Shown piece by piece: positions 7,077 through 35,676 of a stretch of 64,000 nucleotides of DNA. The position numbers and the translations under genes are program-made. The notes under the pieces were generated by a model. That model did not search any database. It was given only the letters and a program-made list of their open reading frames with translations, and was not told the origin of the DNA. The first letter of the stretch is position 1. Every line of letters begins with the position of its first letter. Origin of the DNA: an uncultured Nitrospiraceae bacterium (GTDB lineage Bacteria; Nitrospirota; 9FT-COMBO-42-15; HDB-SIOI813); NCBI GenBank assembly GCA_964611625.1, contig CAZTAM010000003.1, positions 311,960 through 375,959 of the forward strand, read 5' to 3'.

Positions 7077-8123
7077 TCATAAACTGACTACCCTGTCCTT
7101 CCCGCCCTCTTTGGCTTTATACAATGCGTTGTCAGCCTTCCTGATGAGATTGTCAATTTCAGTTATATCAGGGTGAGGATAAGTAGCAACACCGATACTT
7201 ACTGTTATCATTTCACCCTCCTTAATGCTGTCAAATCTGAAATCTCTCACAGAGCTGCGAATACGCTCTGCCAGTCTCATTGCATCCTCCCTTATACTGC
7301 TGGGAAGTATAGCAGAGAACTCCTCACCTCCATATCTTGCAATAATATCAGTTTCCCTGACACATGTTTTAAGCACTCTTGCAACATCCCTCAATACCTT
7401 GTCGCCTGCCTGATGTCCGTAAGTATCGTTAATGCGCTTGAAATTATCGAGGTCAATCATCATGCATGAGAGAGAACCGTGATATCTTTTAGCCCTTTTA
7501 AATTCCTCCTCAAGCCTCCGGACAAAATATTTGTGGTTATAAAGCCGCGTAAGATCATCCGTGATGACCATCTTTTCCAGGAGCAGCTTCTCTTCCCTCA
7601 TAACATTAAACAAATGGGCATTTTTAAGTGCAACAGCCGCCCCCTCTATAATTACCTGACAGAGTTTAAGGTCATTCTCACTGAACTTATTATCCTTTCT
7701 GGATGTCCTCAGAAATAGTGAACCTCCTTCACTGTCATAATAACGAATAGGCATTATAATAATTGATTTAATACCTAACCCTACAATCTTGTCCCTGATT
7801 TCAGAAAGCATCGGATCTGTAGCAACATCTCCTATAAATACGATGTTGTTGTCTTTAACAGACCTGCTGATCTCAGGATATTTTTCGAGGTTTAATGTTA
7901 TTGAATCAAGACCAGGGTCTTCAAATGTTGCGAGAACGTTACCAGAGTTTTTTTCTTTATCAACATTTACTATAGAACACCGGATAACAGGCATTACTTC
8001 AGCTATCTTCTGAACAATAAGAAACAACAAGTCCTTTGTTTCCAGTGTAGAAAAGAGAGACTTATTTACATTGAGAATTATATCCAGGAAATCCTTTATG
8101 TTGTTTTCGGATCTTATTTCCAT
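7077..8123 (-). CDS. GAF-domain diguanylate cyclase (GGDEF)
   Basis: N-terminal GAF-like region; C-terminal GGDEF domain with active site RYGGEEF and I-site RETD. Confidence 0.75.
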   Translation of the reverse strand: MEIRSENNIKDFLDIILNVNKSLFSTLETKDLLFLIVQKIAEVMPVIRCSIVNVDKEKNSGNVLATFEDPGLDSITLNLEKYPEISRSVKDNNIVFIGDVATDPMLSEIRDKIVGLGIKSIIIMPIRYYDSEGGSLFLRTSRKDNKFSENDLKLCQVIIEGAAVALKNAHLFNVMREEKLLLEKMVITDDLTRLYNHKYFVRRLEEEFKRAKRYHGSLSCMMIDLDNFKRINDTYGHQAGDKVLRDVARVLKTCVRETDIIARYGGEEFSAILPSSIREDAMRLAERIRSSVRDFRFDSIKEGEMITVSIGVATYPHPDITEIDNLIRKADNALYKAKEGGKDRVVSL

Positions 8124-19428: not shown

Positions 19429-20607
19429 TCAGGCCTCCTCAACATTCTCAGCGATCTCGACATTCTCAGTATTCTCAGCACTTCCGGTCTTCTCAGTTAC
19501 GAGTTCCTGTCCTGCCTCCATCTCTCTGGCCATACTCTCGGAAATCTCCGATTCCTTTTCCTTGGCGCGCTTCTGTTCATATTCAGTTTCACTGATTATA
19601 TCAATTTTCCAATTGGTCAGCTTGGCTGCAAGCCTGACATTCTGACCTTTTTTACCTATTGCAAGTGACAACTGCTGATCTGTTACTACTACAAGAGCTG
19701 ATTTCTCCTCTTCATTTATTCCAACCCTGTCAACTACAGCAGGACTCAGGGCCTCAGCAATAAAAATCCTCGGGTCGTCAGACCATGGAATAATATCTAT
19801 CTTCTCCCCTCTTAATTCTCGAACTACTGCCTGCACCCGGGATCCCTTCATTCCAACACAAGCCCCGACGGGATCTACAGCAGTGTCCTTGGATAAGACG
19901 GATATCTTTGTCCTGTCACCAGGTTCTCTTACAACATCTTTTATCTCCACTATCCTCTCATAAATTTCCGGAACTTCAGTTGCAAATAACTTGCTGACAA
20001 AATTTGGATGACTCCTGGACAGGATAAGCTGGGGGCCTTTTGCAGACGGCTTGACCTCCAGCAGAAATGCCTTGATACGGTCACCTCGTTTAAAGGTCTC
20101 CCTCGGGATCTGTTCTTTTGCCGGCAACAGACCCTCTGTCTTACCAAGATCAACGATATAATTTCTGTTCTCGTGCCCTAAAATTACTCCATGCACCAGC
20201 TCTCCCTGACGGTCAATGAAATCCTTATAGACAGTGTCCCACTCAGCCTCCCTGACCTTCTGAAATATAACCTGCTTTGCAGTCTGCGCAGCAATTCTGC
20301 CAAAATCACCTACCTCAATCAATGCCCCTATCTCATCTCCCAGTTCAGCCTCATTATCCATCAACCTTGCTTCATTAAGAGATATTTCTTCCTTGGGGTT
20401 GGTTACATCCTCAACAATTTTCTTGATTAATATGACCTGAATCTCTCCGGATTTAGGGTCAATCTCTACCTGAATATTATCCGAAACTCCATAGCGTTTT
20501 TTTGCCGCTGATAAAAGAGCAGACTTTACAGCATCAAGAATAATTGCCCCGTTAATACCCTTTTCCCTGCTAATCTGTTCTATTACATTAATAAGTTCTC
20601 TGCTCAT
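19429..20607 (-). CDS. nusA: Transcription termination/antitermination factor NusA
   Basis: S1 and tandem KH domains; SD GGGAGGA upstream of ATG. Confidence 0.95.
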   Translation of the reverse strand: MSRELINVIEQISREKGINGAIILDAVKSALLSAAKKRYGVSDNIQVEIDPKSGEIQVILIKKIVEDVTNPKEEISLNEARLMDNEAELGDEIGALIEVGDFGRIAAQTAKQVIFQKVREAEWDTVYKDFIDRQGELVHGVILGHENRNYIVDLGKTEGLLPAKEQIPRETFKRGDRIKAFLLEVKPSAKGPQLILSRSHPNFVSKLFATEVPEIYERIVEIKDVVREPGDRTKISVLSKDTAVDPVGACVGMKGSRVQAVVRELRGEKIDIIPWSDDPRIFIAEALSPAVVDRVGINEEEKSALVVVTDQQLSLAIGKKGQNVRLAAKLTNWKIDIISETEYEQKRAKEKESEISESMAREMEAGQELVTEKTGSAENTENVEIAENVEEA

Positions 20608-20632
20608 TGAGAATCATTTCCTCCCTTTCAAA

Positions 20633-20662
20633 CAAAAAAAGTGGGCATAACCACCGCCCACT
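20633..20662 (-). terminator. Intrinsic-terminator-like hairpin in the nusA 5' leader (candidate attenuator)
   Basis: Minus strand reads AGTGGGC-ggtggttat-GCCCACT followed by TTTTTTTG, ending about 26 nt upstream of the nusA start and directly before its SD. Confidence 0.4.
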
Positions 20663-20830
20663 CAATCAACTAGAGCTCAACTGTGTATTTTTCTTATAGC
20701 ATAGTAAAATTAAAAAAGCAAGGCAAAGTAAATATCTTTCAAACCCTTCTTAAGACACCTGCATCATCTTGACTTTTAAAATCAATTATTGGAATATGTA
20801 GTGAATTTTCACATATCAGGTTATAAGCAT

Positions 20831-20917
20831 GCCGGGATGGTGAAACAGGTAGACGCACGGGACTCAAAATCCCGCGGGGGCAACCCCATGGGGGTTCGAT
20901 TCCCCCTCCCGGCACCA
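20831..20917 (+). tRNA. tRNA-Leu (anticodon CAA), type II
   Basis: Acceptor GCCGGGA/TCCCGGC, anticodon loop CTCAAAA, long variable arm, T-arm GGGGG-TTCGATT-CCCCC, encoded CCA. Confidence 0.85.
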
Positions 20918-20986
20918 GCATACAGTATGTCGAATCATTTTAGTTTCATGTAAATAAATACTGATAATTTGTGGTAACATATACAT

Positions 20987-21448
20987 ATGATGGTTCTCAA
21001 AATTAAATGGCATCGTCTTATTGCAGATGAAGGCGGTCAAACTTGCCCGCGGTGTGGTTCAACCGAAAAGGAACTTGAGAAGGCAGCGCACACACTGAAT
21101 CAATCACTTGCTCCATTGGGAATAGAAGTAGTTCTTGAAAAGAAAGCTCTTGATCCTGCTACCTTCGCAAGAGATGTTTTAGAATCAAACCGAATCTGGA
21201 TTGATGATAAACCTATTGAAGAGTTATTGGGAGCAGAAGTTGGACAGAGCCGATGCTGTGACGTTTGCGGCGATGCAGAATGCAGAACTCTTGAGATAGA
21301 AAAAAATACTTATGAAACAATTCCATCTGACGTCATTATTAAAGCTGGACTTATTGCAGCCTCAAAAATGATAGCCGCTGAACCAATAGAAACCTGTTGT
21401 GAAGACAATACCTCAAAGAAGATTCCTTCAAGTACTTGCTGTTCATAA
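20987..21448 (+). CDS. Small cysteine-rich protein (DUF2703-like), probable metal-binding
   Basis: 153 aa with CPRC, CCDVCGDAEC and C-terminal TCC...TCCS (three vicinal Cys pairs). Confidence 0.4.
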   Translation: MMVLKIKWHRLIADEGGQTCPRCGSTEKELEKAAHTLNQSLAPLGIEVVLEKKALDPATFARDVLESNRIWIDDKPIEELLGAEVGQSRCCDVCGDAECRTLEIEKNTYETIPSDVIIKAGLIAASKMIAAEPIETCCEDNTSKKIPSSTCCS

Positions 21449-21601
21449 ACATTTAATAGTTCCATAGAATATAACAATGGATGGCCGGCATGGAGGCAGA
21501 CGGTACGGAGTACGCGCTGTCATCCCATCGGCTCTTAAGAAGCTGGAATAGTGCGGTTTTGTTACTGCATATTCGAAAGAAAACGCAGCATTTCTGCCTG
21601 G

Positions 21602-24600
21602 TTATTCAGACCCCCTTTTCCGGCTGAACATACCTCGCAATGATAACGTCTGAGACTGGTAATAGAGCACCGGCACAACCACCAGTGTCAGCAGTGTGGC
21701 TGCAGCCAGGCCGAATATGACTGCTACCGCCATTGGCCCCCACCACTGAGCTGATTCGCCTCCGATTTCCAGGGATAAATTTCGGAAGTCGAAACTCACC
21801 CCGACTGCCATGGGAAGAAGGCCCAGGATTGTTGTCACTGCCGTGAGCATGACCGGGCGAAAGCGCACGAGACCAGCATGAATGAGCGCCTCACGCAGTT
21901 CCATTCCCTTATTTCTTAACTGATTGATATAGTCAATGAGTACGATGGCATTGTTTACGACCACACCTGCCAGGGATATGACTCCGATGCCGGTCATGAT
22001 AATGCCGAAAGGTGTTGCGGTAACCAGCAGGCCCATGAAAACTCCGGTTAGCGACAGGATAACGGATGTCATGACTATCAGCATTTGTAGAACTGAATTG
22101 AACTGGGTAAGGAGGACAAGTGCTATTAGAAAGACCGCAACGATGAAGGCCTTCCCAAGAAAAGCAGATGCCTTCTGCTGCTCTTCCTGTTCGCCGGAGA
22201 AATTGATCTTATAACCGGCGGGCAGCTCGATTCCTGACAACCGGGTCTGTACATCTTTCAATACCTCGTTGCTGTTTCGGCCGAAAGTGTTGGCGGAGAT
22301 GGTCACCACCCTATTCTGATCAATGTGGCGGATGGCTCCGAAACCAGTCTCCATCTCTATCCTGGCAACTGTGGAGAGTGGAACGGGGGCTCCTGTCCTC
22401 GTCGGAATAAGGAGGCTGCCGATATCACTAAGGCTCTGCCGTCGGGGTTCAGGCAGGCGGGCAATGATGTCATATTCGTCCTTGCCTTCTCGGTAAACTC
22501 CAAGCTTGCTTCCGCTGATTGCAGCCTTGACTGTGCTGGAAATCTCCGCGGTGGAGAGCCCCAGCAGGGTTGCTTTATTCCGGTCAACCAGCACCCTTAT
22601 CTCAGGTTTGGCCTTTGAGAAATCGTCCTTGAGATCAACCAGTCCCGGAACATCTTTTACCAGGGATTTGGACTTCTCTACCAGCGACTCAAGAGTTTCG
22701 ACCACTTCTCCGCTGATCTCTATGTTTACGGGCGGACCTGTGGGTGGACCCGTCTCTTCTTTTTCCACCTTGATCTCTGCCCCGGCCATGGAGGCAACCG
22801 CCTCCCGTATGCGTCCCAGCACGATATTGGAATTCTCTCTGCGCTTCTCCCGCTCGACAAAGTCGAGGGAAATTTTACTAAAATTAGACTGAGCACCGGC
22901 ACTGCTGCCGGCTTCGCCACTCGCGCCAACTCCGACCTCAGCAATAATGAATTTAAGATCCTTTTCCGGACTGGCAGCCTTCTCCACAATCATAGCCAAC
23001 TGGTTGGATGTCTCCAGGTTAGCCCCTTCCGGTGCCTTGATTTCGACGAATGCCCTGTTAGGCTCCGTATCCGGGAAGAGCTCTACCCCATGACCCAACA
23101 GACTGTATCCGGCAATGATAAGAAGCAGCAATGTAAGCGCCCCGCCGACTACCAGTCCCCGATGATCAAGGGATTTCCCCAGAATCCAGCGATACATACC
23201 TAATATGCGCATTTGCTCATCAACGCCGCCTGTGCTGCTGCGGCTGACACGCATAAATGAAGCACAGAGTACCGGGTTGATGACCAGGGCTACCAGCAGT
23301 GATGCCGTCAGAACTATGATAAGGGTCATGGGAAGATATTTCATGAACTCGCCCATCACCCCAGGCCAGAACAACATGGGACCGAATGCGCACAGAGTGG
23401 TCAGTGTCGAGGATATAACCGGCCAGCCGACCTCGCTTACCGCCCTGCGTGCAGCGCTGATCCGGTCATCACCTTCCTGCATGTGCCGGTATATGTTCTC
23501 AACGATTACGATGGCGTTGTCTACCAGCATCCCAAGTGCCAGGATCAGGCTGAACAATACTACCATGTTTAGGGTGATTCCCATCGCCTGAATGACGGCA
23601 AAGGACAGGAGCATGGAAAATGGGATCGCCGATGCGACAAATATGGCGCTGTTCAATCCCAGAAAAAAGAAGAGTACCGCAACCACAAGAATCAGGCCGG
23701 TTAGGATGTTATTCTCCAGATCAGAGACCATGGTCCGGATGTCCCTGGATTGGTTCAGCGTTACGGACAGCTCGACCCCCGCCGGAACCTGCTTCCGGGC
23801 CTCTTCAAGCAGCGCAAATACATGGTCGGCGACTGCGATGATGTTCTCGCCAGTCCGCTTCTTCACCGCAAGTGTCACGCTGCTTCTACCGTTGAGCCTG
23901 GCATGGCTTGTGCGGTCTTCAAAAGTGTCGCGGACCACTGCAACATCCTTGAGGTAGATCGGGCGGCCGTCACGGCTTGCCACCATCAGGGTGTCCACCT
24001 CGTCCGGGCTGGTGAACTCCCCGGGTATGCGGAGGAGGTATTCTCCCCGCCCTATATCGAGGCTGCCGCCTGGGATGTTGACATTTTCGCGTTGAACGGA
24101 CTGAAGTATCTCGGCAAAAGAGAGTCTGTAGGCGAACATTCTGTCAGGGTTGAATTCCACCCTGATTTCCCTCTCCCGTCCACCCGCAAGATTCACCTCC
24201 AGAACGCCTGGAATCGCTTCAATCCTGTCCTCCAGTTCTTCCGCCACACGTTTGAGAACCGTTTCCTCAACATCACCGGAAACAGCAAGCATCAGAATCG
24301 GAAACTCCGAAAGGTTGACCTCGAAGATAACAGGATCGTTTTCCAGATCTTCGGGGAGATCCCCTTTGGCCTGATCAACTTTGTCGCGCACCCACTGTAT
24401 GGCGTTGTCGATGTCTACCCTGGGAGTAAATTCAATAGTAATCACTGAGGAACCCTCGGCACTGACTGATCTGATTTCTTCCACGTCCCTGAGGCCCTTT
24501 AGCTTGCGTTCTATTGGCAGGGTAATGAGGGTTTCAATGTCCGATGGCGCAGCCCCCTCATAGGAGGTGACCACCATAACATACGGTATTGTGATGTCAG

Positions 24601-24712
24601 GGGACGATTCACGCGGAAGTGTAATGTAGCTGTATGCCCCAATTACAATAAAAAAAACCATCAGGGCGAAGATTGTGCTGCGATGGCCAATGGCTGCATC
24701 AGATATCAGCAT
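21602..24712 (-). CDS. RND efflux transporter permease (AcrB/CzcA superfamily)
   Basis: About 1040 aa, 12-TM RND architecture; track start is TTG at 24733, internal ATG at 24712 gives an AcrB-like N-terminus. Confidence 0.85.
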   Translation of the reverse strand: MLISDAAIGHRSTIFALMVFFIVIGAYSYITLPRESSPDITIPYVMVVTSYEGAAPSDIETLITLPIERKLKGLRDVEEIRSVSAEGSSVITIEFTPRVDIDNAIQWVRDKVDQAKGDLPEDLENDPVIFEVNLSEFPILMLAVSGDVEETVLKRVAEELEDRIEAIPGVLEVNLAGGREREIRVEFNPDRMFAYRLSFAEILQSVQRENVNIPGGSLDIGRGEYLLRIPGEFTSPDEVDTLMVASRDGRPIYLKDVAVVRDTFEDRTSHARLNGRSSVTLAVKKRTGENIIAVADHVFALLEEARKQVPAGVELSVTLNQSRDIRTMVSDLENNILTGLILVVAVLFFFLGLNSAIFVASAIPFSMLLSFAVIQAMGITLNMVVLFSLILALGMLVDNAIVIVENIYRHMQEGDDRISAARRAVSEVGWPVISSTLTTLCAFGPMLFWPGVMGEFMKYLPMTLIIVLTASLLVALVINPVLCASFMRVSRSSTGGVDEQMRILGMYRWILGKSLDHRGLVVGGALTLLLLIIAGYSLLGHGVELFPDTEPNRAFVEIKAPEGANLETSNQLAMIVEKAASPEKDLKFIIAEVGVGASGEAGSSAGAQSNFSKISLDFVEREKRRENSNIVLGRIREAVASMAGAEIKVEKEETGPPTGPPVNIEISGEVVETLESLVEKSKSLVKDVPGLVDLKDDFSKAKPEIRVLVDRNKATLLGLSTAEISSTVKAAISGSKLGVYREGKDEYDIIARLPEPRRQSLSDIGSLLIPTRTGAPVPLSTVARIEMETGFGAIRHIDQNRVVTISANTFGRNSNEVLKDVQTRLSGIELPAGYKINFSGEQEEQQKASAFLGKAFIVAVFLIALVLLTQFNSVLQMLIVMTSVILSLTGVFMGLLVTATPFGIIMTGIGVISLAGVVVNNAIVLIDYINQLRNKGMELREALIHAGLVRFRPVMLTAVTTILGLLPMAVGVSFDFRNLSLEIGGESAQWWGPMAVAVIFGLAAATLLTLVVVPVLYYQSQTLSLRGMFSRKRGSE

Positions 24713-25796
24713 TTCCGGTTCCCTCTTCAGCAACTGCGGACCCGTCGCTAACCAGGTGCTGACCTTTTACAATGAGCCGCTCACCAGGTGTGAGCCCTTC
24801 TTCTATCACTGCCATATTGCCGATAATAGGCCCGACTTTTACTTGACGAAGATGTGCTGTGCCGCCCTGTTCGACATAGACGACTTTGATCCCATCGCGT
24901 TCCACCAGGGAATAAAGTGGGACTGCGATTACCTGAGAGAGCTTACGGCTCAGGAAAGCGACACGAATGATCATCCCAGGGCGCAGTGATCCCGCCTTGT
25001 TGTCGACAGCGATCTTGGCCTGGTAAGTCCTGGTTGCCGGATCTGCCTGGTAGGATAGATGGATGATCTCACCTGCGAATCCCTGACCTGCCCCTCCTTC
25101 TACCGGAGCGGCAAAGACCCGGGCTTTTTCTCCAACAGTCAGTTTCATTATGTCCTTCTCAGGTACATCTACCAGTGCCCGCAGCCGGTTGACCTGCATA
25201 ACAACCGCTGCGGCGTTCCCTTCGGCAATATACTCGCCCCGGTCTATCAACAGGCGATCGAGAATACCGTCCACAGGGCTGCGAATTGTGCTTTTGTCAA
25301 GGGCTACCCTTGAAAGCCTCAACTGGGCCTGAGCCTGTTCAAATGCCTTAGTGGAATCTTCGAATTCCTGCTGGCTGATAAGATTGCTCTGAACAAGGGA
25401 GAGGCGGCGTTCCATGCGCTTTTTCTGCAGTTCGTACTCGACCTCATCACGTGCCAACTCCGCTTCAAGTCTTTCCGGATCGATGCGCAGGATGGTATCT
25501 CCCTTTTTCACCCTGTCTCCTTCTTTGGGGCCAATCCATTTCACAGGACCGGACATTTCAGCTGCCAGGGTCAGATCCTCCCAGGCTTCCAGAGTTCCGG
25601 GGAGAGTCAGGTTCACCGAGAGATTTTGCTTTACGACAGTGCTGAGGGAAACGTTGGTGACCTTTATCCGATGCGGATCTGGCAATACTACTTTGGTTTC
25701 ATCACTGCCGGAATTATCGCATCCGCTGAAAAGAAGTACCACCAGAAGAAGCGGAAGGCAGGCAGGGTGATTCAGGAGAATATTCTTTAGCTTCAT
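24699..25796 (-). CDS. RND efflux periplasmic adaptor (membrane fusion protein), lipoprotein
   Basis: Lipobox LLFSGC; HlyD-like lipoyl and beta-barrel regions; ATG at 25796. Confidence 0.8.
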   Translation of the reverse strand: MKLKNILLNHPACLPLLLVVLLFSGCDNSGSDETKVVLPDPHRIKVTNVSLSTVVKQNLSVNLTLPGTLEAWEDLTLAAEMSGPVKWIGPKEGDRVKKGDTILRIDPERLEAELARDEVEYELQKKRMERRLSLVQSNLISQQEFEDSTKAFEQAQAQLRLSRVALDKSTIRSPVDGILDRLLIDRGEYIAEGNAAAVVMQVNRLRALVDVPEKDIMKLTVGEKARVFAAPVEGGAGQGFAGEIIHLSYQADPATRTYQAKIAVDNKAGSLRPGMIIRVAFLSRKLSQVIAVPLYSLVERDGIKVVYVEQGGTAHLRQVKVGPIIGNMAVIEEGLTPGERLIVKGQHLVSDGSAVAEEGTGNADI

Positions 25797-25862
25797 CACT
25801 GGTCTCCGGATTTTGACATTTATACTCCACGTAAGTAATTAAAGTTGCCTGCAAGAAAAACC

Positions 25863-25902
25863 TTGACATTAAACGTTATAATGCTAATATAGTGCTATAC
25901 TA
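25863..25902 (+). promoter_or_regulatory. Putative sigma70 promoter of the MarR gene with overlapping inverted repeat
   Basis: -35 TTGACA (25863-25868), 16-nt spacer, -10 TAATAT (25885-25890); palindrome TATAG-TG-CTATA (25888-25899) overlaps -10 and predicted TSS. Confidence 0.3.
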
Positions 25903-25938
25903 ACTATTAGTCAAGCAATTATTTCAAAGAAAACGGAC

Positions 25939-26376
25939 ATGATTGATTATGATTTCGAAAATAGCGTAAGTTTCTGGGTGGGACTGACTTCACACATCTT
26001 CGAGACAGCTCTTAATAATGAGTTGGTTGGTACAGGCATCACGCTGCGGCAGGTACAGGTGCTTGCATGTCTTGCCCTGTATGGAGACCTGGCACAAAAT
26101 GAGTTGGCTGCTCAATTGCGAATAGAGCCCCCGACACTCGTGCGCATCCTGGACAGGATGGAACGGGACGGCTGGATAGAGCGGTGCGAATCACCACTGG
26201 ACCGAAGAAAAAAAATCATTCGTCCTACCGAAAGGGTCACCACCAGATGGAATAAAATCGTTGAATGTGGTGAGCGCATGGAAAAGCGGGCGACTACGGG
26301 TCTGAGCCAGACCCAATTGAATAACCTTAAGGATACGCTATCAGCAATACGCCGCAATCTTGAACCTAAAACATAA
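25939..26376 (+). CDS. MarR-family transcriptional regulator
   Basis: 145 aa winged-HTH with typical MarR layout; divergent from the efflux operon. Confidence 0.75.
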   Translation: MIDYDFENSVSFWVGLTSHIFETALNNELVGTGITLRQVQVLACLALYGDLAQNELAAQLRIEPPTLVRILDRMERDGWIERCESPLDRRKKIIRPTERVTTRWNKIVECGERMEKRATTGLSQTQLNNLKDTLSAIRRNLEPKT

Positions 26377-26746
26377 CGATTTTTTTTGAGACAAATCGGG
26401 CTTTGTCAATTGCTGTCTTCATCCGGTATTTATTAATCCGCTGGCAGCTAATGATTATAATCTTAACTTATAAGCCACAATGAATCCTTGCATATTTTAC
26501 GATTAGCTGTTATAGTATGCGATAAGATTGATAGTATGGATTGGCATGTCCTATACCCACCATGTAATGAGAGCCTTCCAGTCTATCTTGCCTGATATGA
26601 GCATAATGAATATTGCCGACTTCGTAAGATACCCATTTGCGCGACTATCATTTCGCACCGCAATTTATACATTCGCCAGCTTATGGATGTTGGGAATAAT
26701 ATCAGTATCCCCTGCTGTGTCAGGACAGTTTAAAGGAGCGACAGAT

Positions 26747-27261: not shown

Positions 27262-27615
27262 ATGTCAGTCAAGCTTTATGTAGGCAATCTGTCTTATGAG
27301 GTCACAGAATCAGAATTAAACGACCTTTTCACACCATTTGGTACTGTGGAAAGCGCCCGGATTATCACTGACAAGTTTACAGGGAACTCCAAAGGATTCG
27401 GTTTTGTTGAGATGTCCAACCGTGAAGAAGCAAATCAGGCTATGAACGAACTCAATGGAAAAACGATTAATAACCGCGCAGTGGTTGTAAATGAGGCAAG
27501 GCCCCAGACCAAGTCACCACGCGGGGGTGGAGGCGGAGGGTTTGGAAACCGTTCATCACGCGGAGGAGGCAGCGGCAGTAAAAGCGGCGGCAGACCTCAG
27601 AGAAGAAGTTATTAG
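27262..27615 (+). CDS. RRM-type RNA-binding protein with Gly/Arg-rich tail
   Basis: RNP-2 LYVGNL and RNP-1 KGFGFVEM; C-terminal GGGGGGFGNRSSRGGGSG; SD AAGGAGAG. Confidence 0.85.
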   Translation: MSVKLYVGNLSYEVTESELNDLFTPFGTVESARIITDKFTGNSKGFGFVEMSNREEANQAMNELNGKTINNRAVVVNEARPQTKSPRGGGGGGFGNRSSRGGGSGSKSGGRPQRRSY

Positions 27616-34898: not shown

Positions 34899-35486
34899 TC
34901 AGCAGCGCAGTTTTTTTGTTACTTCAATCAGCCTGTTTGTCATAAACCTTGAAACAACAAGGTCTGTTTCGTTAGGCTCACCTGATGACAATGCACCATA
35001 GTACGAACCTGCCTTATACAGCTCTTTGACATTTCCAGGGATTCCTACAATTATCATACCATGGGCAAGAAATGTGGGATACATGGAAAGCAGTGTTGCC
35101 TCCTGTCCGCCATGTATCATCTCTGCAGAAGAAAATGCCGAGACAGTTTTTCCTATTAATGACCCTTCCATCCACAGTTTTCCGGTCTGATCCCAGAAAT
35201 TCCTCATAGGAGCAGCCATGTTGCCAAATCGTGTTGGTGAACCAACAATGAGGCCATCCATCCATATCAGGTCATCTACTACTGCATCGGGAATATCTGA
35301 CATCTGTTCGTACATAGCCTTCCATTCAGTGCTATTTTCAATAACTTCTGCAGGAGCAAGTTCTGCAGCTTTTCTAAGTCGCAATTCAACTCCTGATGCC
35401 GCAACATCCTTTGCAATAGAGCGGGCCATCTTGAGCATATGTCCTGTCTTGCTGTAAAACAGTACTAATATTCTTGCAGCAGCCAT
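34899..35486 (-). CDS. wrbA: NAD(P)H:quinone oxidoreductase, flavodoxin-like (WrbA family)
   Basis: ILVLFYSKTGH flavodoxin N-terminus; internal ATG at 35486 with SD GGGAGGTG preferred over track start 35591. Confidence 0.75.
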   Translation of the reverse strand: MAAARILVLFYSKTGHMLKMARSIAKDVAASGVELRLRKAAELAPAEVIENSTEWKAMYEQMSDIPDAVVDDLIWMDGLIVGSPTRFGNMAAPMRNFWDQTGKLWMEGSLIGKTVSAFSSAEMIHGGQEATLLSMYPTFLAHGMIIVGIPGNVKELYKAGSYYGALSSGEPNETDLVVSRFMTNRLIEVTKKLRC

Positions 35487-35676
35487 AACGCACCTCCCTG
35501 AGTAAGTTGAATTTATATCCTGATTTAAGGTTAACACACTGAATGTTATCCTACAAGTTGATATTAAAAAAACAGATGACCCACTTGACAAAGTGTGATC
35601 AAGTCATTATTCTAATATTAAGTCTTGTTTCGATATTATGCAACTAATGAAGTAATCCCTTTTCTGGAGAATTATT

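Follow-up and report, generated by a model that had tools for sequence, protein, structure and literature searches.

The DUF2703 gene and its product

The 64-kb stretch of DNA analysed here (contig CAZTAM010000003.1; hereafter the window) derives from an uncultured Nitrospirota bacterium, as judged from its NusA, which is 83-94% identical to that of Nitrospirae metagenome-assembled genomes (MAGs). It contains, 69 bp downstream of a tRNA-Leu(CAA) gene, the small gene of a DUF2703 protein, which is the subject of this report; beyond it lie the genes for a resistance-nodulation-division (RND) permease and its membrane-fusion protein (MFP), and a gene for a MarR-family regulator (Table 1). A preliminary description of the locus, made from the sequence, had noted a 153-aa protein with the motifs CPRC and CCDVCGDAEC and two C-terminal CC pairs, and we found the open reading frame (ORF) and the Cys positions as described: ten of the 153 residues are Cys (6.5%; positions 20, 23, 90, 91, 94, 99, 137, 138, 151 and 152), with vicinal pairs at 90-91, 137-138 and 151-152. 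The DUF2703 label given in that description was confirmed by a hidden Markov model (HMM) search, in which the Pfam profile PF10865 matched with E=4.3e-39 and a score of 133.7 bits, above the gathering threshold of 23.6, residues 4-120 covering profile positions 1-119 of 120, essentially the whole domain. No NCBIfam model matches the protein, and searches of PDB sequences with the protein query and with the family profile gave chance matches only (E >= 0.15). Neither a signal peptide nor a transmembrane segment was predicted. An Rfam scan of positions 20500-21800 returned the tRNA alone, with no riboswitch or leader, and a scan for promoters and terminators yielded no more sites than shuffled sequence.

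Table 1. Features of the window discussed in the text (GC3, G+C content at third codon positions)
Feature	Coordinates	Strand	GC3	Remarks
tRNA-Leu(CAA)	20831..20917	+		ARAGORN; Rfam tRNA 53.9 bits; 3' end marks the left block junction
Block of about 5.5 kb (DUF2703, RND permease, MFP, MarR)	~20918..26472			synteny breakpoint; right boundary approximate
DUF2703 coding sequence	20987..21448	+	0.279	ATG start; 153 aa; PF10865, thioredoxin fold
C20-P-R-C23 codons	21044..21055	+		CxxC at the start of helix 1, canonical thioredoxin active-site position
C90-C91-D-V-C94-G-D-A-E-C99 codons	21254..21283	+		Cys cluster; lies at the tip of the hairpin made by beta-strands 84-89 and 98-104
Disordered C-terminal tail, residues 131-153	21377..21445	+		pairs C137-C138 and C151-C152
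RND permease	21602..24733	-	0.605	ACR_tran, E=2e-218; convergent with DUF2703, stop codons 153 bp apart
RND membrane-fusion (adaptor) protein	24699..25799	-	0.542	TIGR01730, 230 bits, above cut-off; in operon with the permease
MarR-family regulator	25939..26376	+	0.500	MarR, E=3.5e-15; divergent from the pump operon
RRM_1 RNA-binding protein	27262-27615	+		117 aa; beside the FKBP gene
FMN-reductase-like protein	34899-35591	-		WrbA-type
Thirteen flanking host genes			0.36-0.46, about 0.43

The AlphaFold2 model calculated with the family alignment (mean predicted local distance difference test score, pLDDT, of 82.8) comprises a strand (residues 2-12), a helix that begins at the CPRC motif (21-44), a second strand (46-55), short helices, a hairpin (84-89/98-104), a helix (114-130) and the tail. 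The pLDDT is below 50 for residues 139-153, as expected for a disordered tail, and 74 locally at the hairpin Cys cluster. The closest structures are DsbA, protein disulfide isomerase (PDI) and thioredoxins, with 1ILO among the top Foldseek matches. The predicted fold agrees with the analysis of Pawlowski et al. 2010 (PMC3091736), who placed DUF2703 in the thioredoxin clan, noted fusions to ArsD and predicted an oxidoreductase. A profile comparison with hhalign against the Thioredoxin_3 proteins encoded beside homologs gave a probability of 89% (E 2.2e-6), with CPRC placed on their CxxC, and the comparison of our family alignment (A1, see below) with an ArsD alignment gave 0.3%. Thus, on the model and the profile comparisons taken together, the window protein is a thioredoxin-fold protein with an active-site CxxC and an extra, invariant four-Cys hairpin, and not an ArsD.

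Alignment A1 comprises 28 sequences, from Nitrospirota, Bathyarchaeia, Flavobacterium, Betaproteobacteria and Omnitrophota. In it C20, C23, C90, C91, C94 and C99, as well as P21, R22 and G95, are invariant, so that the Cys pattern is not a product of chance; the preliminary description had named a lack of conserved cysteines in homologs as the observation that would speak against its proposal. The window protein possesses both the CxxC and the CCxxCxxx(x)C cysteines of DUF2703. The full six-Cys pattern occurs in 167 of 279 retrieved homologs, many of the listed entries being shorter than the full domain, and the homologs outside the 167 were not looked at one by one. Methanobacterial variants carry CCxxCxxxC at the hairpin cluster. 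The C-terminal CC pairs are variable and missing from many homologs; at least two Cys in the C-terminal tail are found in 128 of the 167 complete homologs, and 82% of these 167 have a Cys-rich arm at one terminus or the other, in some cases the N-terminal one. A protein search retrieved 506 DUF2703 homologs at E <= 1e-3, and 746 clusters at 50% identity came out of an HMM scan that covered 1.84 billion representatives; the family is therefore small. Homologs of 50-73% identity come from Nitrospirota, Bathyarchaeia, methanogens, Flavobacterium, Betaproteobacteria, Patescibacteria and plasmids, a taxonomic spread that suggests lateral transfer. The window protein adds one member to this known family of unknown function, for which a literature search by PF10865 and IPR021219 returned no matches and whose name, DUF2703, was met in just two papers.

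Some homologs depart from the window protein at the N-terminus. Four of them (P0049, P0056, P0067 and P0075) have N-termini that resemble, by eye, lipoprotein signal peptides, of which the window protein has none; if genuine, these would make the proteins extracytoplasmic. Three others (P0061, P0079 and P0082) have a Cys-containing N-terminal arm (…RKRYGNVAKNSSSCC…), which may resemble the N-terminus of ArsM methyltransferases.

Arsenic genes around DUF2703 and a proposed role

The genomic context of the family was surveyed in 87 loci (80 from one-genome-per-species contigs, four plasmid loci, and the loci of the closest homologs), in which ORFs within 5 kb were called and clustered and the cluster representatives annotated. 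At least one ars-type gene is present in 43 of the 87 loci, so the co-occurrence of homologs with ars genes, which the preliminary description had put forward as a point to check, does exist. The neighbors include ArsR-family regulators (27 loci), ArsP_1 permeases (PF03773; 26), Thioredoxin_3 proteins of the NCBIfam MTH895/ArsE family (at least 19, a lower bound since an antisense ORF masks Thioredoxin_3 in some loci), ACR3 (15), an unannotated 231-aa protein (13), P-type ATPases (7), thioredoxins (7), ArsA (6), LMWP-type ArsC (6) and ArsF-family proteins (4); ArsD is present in eight loci. In 12 cases the gene directly upstream on the same strand is that of the ArsP_1 permease, and a recurrent operon with the order ArsP_1 > DUF2703 > Thioredoxin_3 > ArsR > ACR3 > thioredoxin > 231-aa protein is found in Nitrospirota and other groups (e.g. 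L056, L069, L044, L050, L026 and L019; the DUF2703 match lies at about position 8001 in loci with full flanks). NCBIfam itself names neighbors of DUF2703 as ArsE-family and ArsF-family proteins. The 231-aa operon protein has no Pfam or NCBIfam match, and another recurrent neighbor, of 410 aa, has only sub-threshold glutaredoxin/thioredoxin-like matches.

The association extends to gene fusions. In a Dehalococcoidia MAG (L027, 7422-8444) we found a 341-aa protein composed of ArsD (E=2.6e-44), a linker with a weak CMD-like match, and DUF2703 (E=3.2e-38), with arsA directly downstream. Separate genes occur in the order arsD-arsA-DUF2703 in L089 and arsA-arsD-DUF2703 in L033 and L062. A 292-aa protein (P0309) is a Thioredoxin_3-DUF2703 fusion, and a 316-aa protein (P0390) is a tandem of two DUF2703 domains. 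Several of the ArsE-type Thioredoxin_3 neighbors (in L063, L075, L077 and others) end in Cys-rich tails such as GGGCSCGGNC or GGGCCSCDNC; Cys-rich arms are in this sense a recurrent feature of different proteins of predicted thioredoxin fold in DUF2703 clusters.

Further variation was seen on plasmids and upstream of the gene. A Citrobacter plasmid (L091) carries an intact DUF2703 gene after a permease-thioredoxin-rhodanese set, with ACR3 and trxB about 6-7 kb upstream and ArsR about 4.5 kb downstream. In the copy on a Klebsiella grimontii plasmid (L092, NZ_CP118190.1, 6986-7348) the N-terminus with the CxxC, which the 128-aa Citrobacter protein has, is missing; directly upstream of the shortened gene is one for an IS5-family transposase. 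Two loci of different context (L097:2176-2336 and L098:5840-6000) have a common upstream promoter-like motif, TTGACAA[G/A]CCCCAC…AATGGAATAGAT, which may travel with the DUF2703 gene.

Previous work gives this context a biochemical setting. ArsD binds As(III) and hands it over to ArsA, and ArsP is an efflux permease for methylarsenite (PMC6205960), while ArsE and ArsF are stated, in a passage of PMC9144182 that cites Chen et al. 2019, to confer organoarsenical resistance. For Rhodococcus aetherivorans, Firrincieli et al. (PMC6514093) reported an arsenate (As(V))-inducible DUF2703 gene that is part of the ars cluster. That the DUF2703 family handles metalloids is, as far as gene context can tell, well supported. 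The metal- or metalloid-binding role suggested in the preliminary description finds backing at the level of the family, in the ars loci, in the fusions to ArsD and Thioredoxin_3 and in the invariant cysteines; its other half, the tie to the neighboring pump, is not supported (see below).

We tentatively propose, as the likeliest mechanism but at somewhat less than even confidence, that the DUF2703 protein is a cytoplasmic thiol-based protein that binds and hands off soft trivalent metalloids, acting in principle as ArsD does without being an ArsD. For the ligand, the roles of the individual cysteines and the direction of transfer we infer the following scheme. The ligand, an As(III), Sb(III) or organoarsenical species, would be captured by the flexible Cys-rich arm with its vicinal pairs and held by the invariant core cysteines (CPRC plus CCxxCxxxxC), with dithiol/disulfide exchange or coordination of the S3 type as the mode of binding. 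Where the gene is part of an ars operon, the metalloid might then be passed on to permeases of the ArsP/ArsG type or to the ArsD/ArsA system, and the orphan copy in the window might serve by itself as a buffer or chaperone, or have its partners elsewhere in the genome.

The same fold and motif could also belong to a plain thiol-disulfide oxidoreductase, whose CPRC would reduce or isomerise disulfides (e.g. in regenerating thioredoxin-coupled ArsC, or so that ArsP or ArsD cysteines stay reduced) and which would have no metalloid ligand. The CPxC at the canonical thioredoxin active site and the structural proximity to DsbA, PDI and thioredoxins speak for such an activity, which was predicted for the family by Pawlowski et al. 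(PMC3091736) and proposed for the Rhodococcus protein by Firrincieli et al. (PMC6514093). A thioredoxin-type reaction, however, needs neither the four further invariant cysteines nor the Cys-rich arms; the same operons already encode Thioredoxin_3 and a classical thioredoxin, which would make a third generic reductant redundant; and metalloid handling is indicated by the fusion to ArsD, a metallochaperone. We consider this alternative rather doubtful.

Another explanation starts from the spacing of the cysteines: the two knuckles C20-x2-C23-G and C91-x2-C94-G, invariant or nearly so including their glycines, could form a built-in Cys4 site for Zn or Fe (zinc-ribbon- or rubredoxin-like), or an iron-sulfur site could be formed with C90 and C99, and such a site could serve as structural zinc, as a redox switch or in electron transfer. 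Thioredoxin-like 2Fe-2S ferredoxin subunits are among the weak Foldseek matches, and the lower pLDDT at both Cys loops would be consistent with an absent ligand. Residues 12-26 also give a weak match to Zn_ribbon_8 (PF09723; E=0.62, 10.6 bits against a cut-off of 34.4), which is not significant, and a structural metal would leave the variable Cys-rich arms, the ars context and the ArsD fusion unexplained. A Cys4 site of this kind seems unlikely to us.

Several observations weigh against the metalloid binding and hand-off that we propose, in particular for the copy in the window. The metalloid role of DUF2703 is a prediction from sequence and gene context. The PF03773 permeases of the census also resemble efflux transporters for Cu/Zn and other substrates, and the ligand may thus be something other than arsenic. 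At the six homolog loci nearest to the window copy (66-76% identity) the gene is monocistronic and devoid of ars neighbors, in six further, unrelated contexts: beside a radical-SAM gene and a transposase, beside an Rce1-like gene, between a toxin-antitoxin pair and serS, near lipid A and acyl carrier protein genes, between an HD-domain gene and an ATP-binding cassette (ABC) gene, and between hisI and moaA. Homologs of the ars-type neighbor clusters were looked for across the 64-kb window, and none was found. Since both the window copy and these six lack ars neighbors, its ars link is, to judge from gene context, borrowed from more distant members of the family, at 45-60% identity; the only close relative beside ArsP_1 and Thioredoxin_3 is that in L109, at 70% identity. 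Finally, an ars context was found for 8 of 33 Cys-tailed forms vs 26 of 40 tail-less ones (Fisher p=0.00085, uncorrected for phylogeny), and the role of the Cys-tailed sub-type, to which the window protein belongs, may differ.

Some tailed genes are paired only with a gene of the ArsR family (L015, L021, L053 and L085). SmtB and SmtA form a pair of a regulator and a metallothionein, and the tailed DUF2703/ArsR pairs resemble its logic. Metalloid hand-off can be phrased more specifically: DUF2703 would be an unrecognised part of As/Sb detoxification, a six-Cys metalloid chaperone of thioredoxin fold or redox partner for ArsP/ArsG permeases and for ArsD/ArsA, and the Cys-tailed orphan would be a stand-alone buffer analogous to the SmtB/SmtA metallothionein pair. 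This combined version is possible, but we hold it with reserve.

A strain-specific block and the neighboring RND pump

In relatives with 90-94% identical NusA the tRNA-Leu gene is followed directly by an FKBP gene (L101, L102, L105, L106 and L136), and the DUF2703, RND, MFP and MarR genes are on none of the nine relatives' contigs examined. The block of Table 1 is therefore strain-specific and starts exactly at the 3' end of the tRNA. Direct repeats of at least 14 nt flanking the block were not found, nor was an integrase or recombinase among its annotated genes; these results do not demonstrate an integrase-mediated island of the classical kind. The GC3 of the DUF2703 gene deviates from that of the flanking host genes in the direction opposite to that of the pump genes, which suggests that the block consists of two cargos of different origin, acquired separately at one hot spot, rather than of a single unit that evolved together. 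In its Nitrospirota host the DUF2703 gene is thus apparently an orphan, horizontally acquired at a hot spot adjacent to tRNA-Leu. On the far side of the block, the gene beside the FKBP gene encodes a bacterial RRM_1 RNA-binding protein (E=1e-26), and the arrangement FKBP-RRM-addA-addB is kept in relatives. The FMN-reductase-like gene of the window was considered as a candidate for ArsH and ruled out, its product being a WrbA-type NAD(P)H:quinone oxidoreductase (NF002999, 159.5 bits vs a cut-off of 141).

The preliminary description had suggested that the protein may be functionally linked to the adjacent RND pump and that the block handles metals; on that view DUF2703 would work with the pump in metal efflux, as its chaperone for metals or metalloids. 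A precedent for an RND metal chaperone is CusF, a secreted periplasmic protein encoded in the cus operon. The two genes are indeed adjacent, all four genes lie in one strain-specific block, and in one further case, on a Methylomonas plasmid (L090), a DUF2703 homolog has a CusA/CzcA pump gene and a P-type ATPase gene in its vicinity. Against this stand the convergent orientation of the DUF2703 and pump genes and the absence of a signal peptide from the DUF2703 protein, unlike in CusF. Of the 87 loci, three have an RND gene within 5 kb, one of them the window itself, which leaves 2 of the 86 others; in a further set of 37 loci no homolog of the permease, adaptor or MarR protein of the window occurs. 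On the multidrug model RND_permease_2 the permease reaches 637 bits (cut-off 1250), and on the CusA/CzcA model TIGR00914 489 bits (cut-off 701), both below threshold; it does not belong to the heavy-metal-efflux family by this model and stands closer to multidrug RND proteins. The adaptor reaches 144.6 bits on the CzcB/NccB model, below the cut-off of 319, and a MarR regulator is encoded alongside. The difference in GC3 between DUF2703 and the permease implies different donors, and the nearest relatives of the DUF2703 gene stand alone. A functional link between the RND pump and DUF2703 is not supported, and we judge the two to be unlinked. Given the same scores, the MarR neighbor and the lack of any ars-type gene in the 64 kb, a metal-handling role of the block is likewise not supported, and a chaperone working with this pump is very improbable. 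The practical result for the window is that the DUF2703 gene gives no ground for labelling the MarR-associated RND pump as a metal pump.

Comparison with known systems

With CusF the window protein shares only the idea of a small metal-binding protein beside an RND pump: it has a different fold and no signal peptide, its gene is convergent to that of the pump, and its family is not conserved beside RND pumps. What sets it apart from thioredoxin, DsbA and PDI is a further four invariant cysteines together with the Cys-rich arms, and DUF2703 genes associate with metal(loid) resistance genes rather than with folding or redox housekeeping genes.

The best remote sequence relative is the MTH895/ArsE group of Thioredoxin_3 proteins (PF13192; TIGR00412; 1ILO), which are also frequent operon neighbors and fusion partners of DUF2703 and some of which are Cys-tailed. 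Membership in this group was considered and rejected: neither the Pfam nor the NCBIfam model matches the window protein, the relationship being one of remote profile similarity (89%). DUF2703 is about twice as long and possesses the extra invariant CCxxCGxxxC hairpin, and since both proteins are encoded side by side, they should have different roles.

ArsD (PF06953), to which the vicinal cysteines had been compared in the preliminary description, is a reasonable working analogy, but not a family to which the protein belongs. ArsD is a protein that binds As(III)/Sb(III) and by which the ArsA ATPase is activated. Like ArsD, the window protein is a small cytoplasmic protein of thioredoxin fold; it has a vicinal CC followed by a third Cys (C12-C13-x4-C18 in ArsD, C90-C91-x2-C94 in the window protein) and C-terminal vicinal pairs (GCCGGNTSCC in ArsD, TCC...TCCS in the window protein), and its homologs are found beside arsA and even fused to ArsD. 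The differences are that the Cys triad of ArsD lies at the thioredoxin active-site loop, where the window protein has CPRC, and that the CC-x2-C of the latter is at residues 90-94, on the C-terminal hairpin. The As(III) site Cys12-Cys13-Cys18, which follows strand 1 in ArsD, is thus absent, its position being taken by C20-P-R-C23. The Pfam ArsD profile, which finds a true ArsD at E=4e-48, gives no match to the window protein at E <= 1, and the profile comparison described above likewise separates the two families. Some homologs adjoin arsA; the window copy does not, there being no arsA in the 64 kb. Moreover, DUF2703 usually accompanies ArsD and does not replace it.

The census gives the DUF2703 family a concrete and testable job: in bacteria and archaea its genes recur with those for ArsP-type permeases, ArsE-type thioredoxins and ArsD/ArsA, in some cases as fusions. 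The most useful leads are its ars association, the fusions, and the division into tailed and tail-less sub-types. If the proposed role is true, DUF2703 would add a component to the pathways of arsenic and organoarsenical resistance, and the annotation of ars islands in metagenomes would improve.
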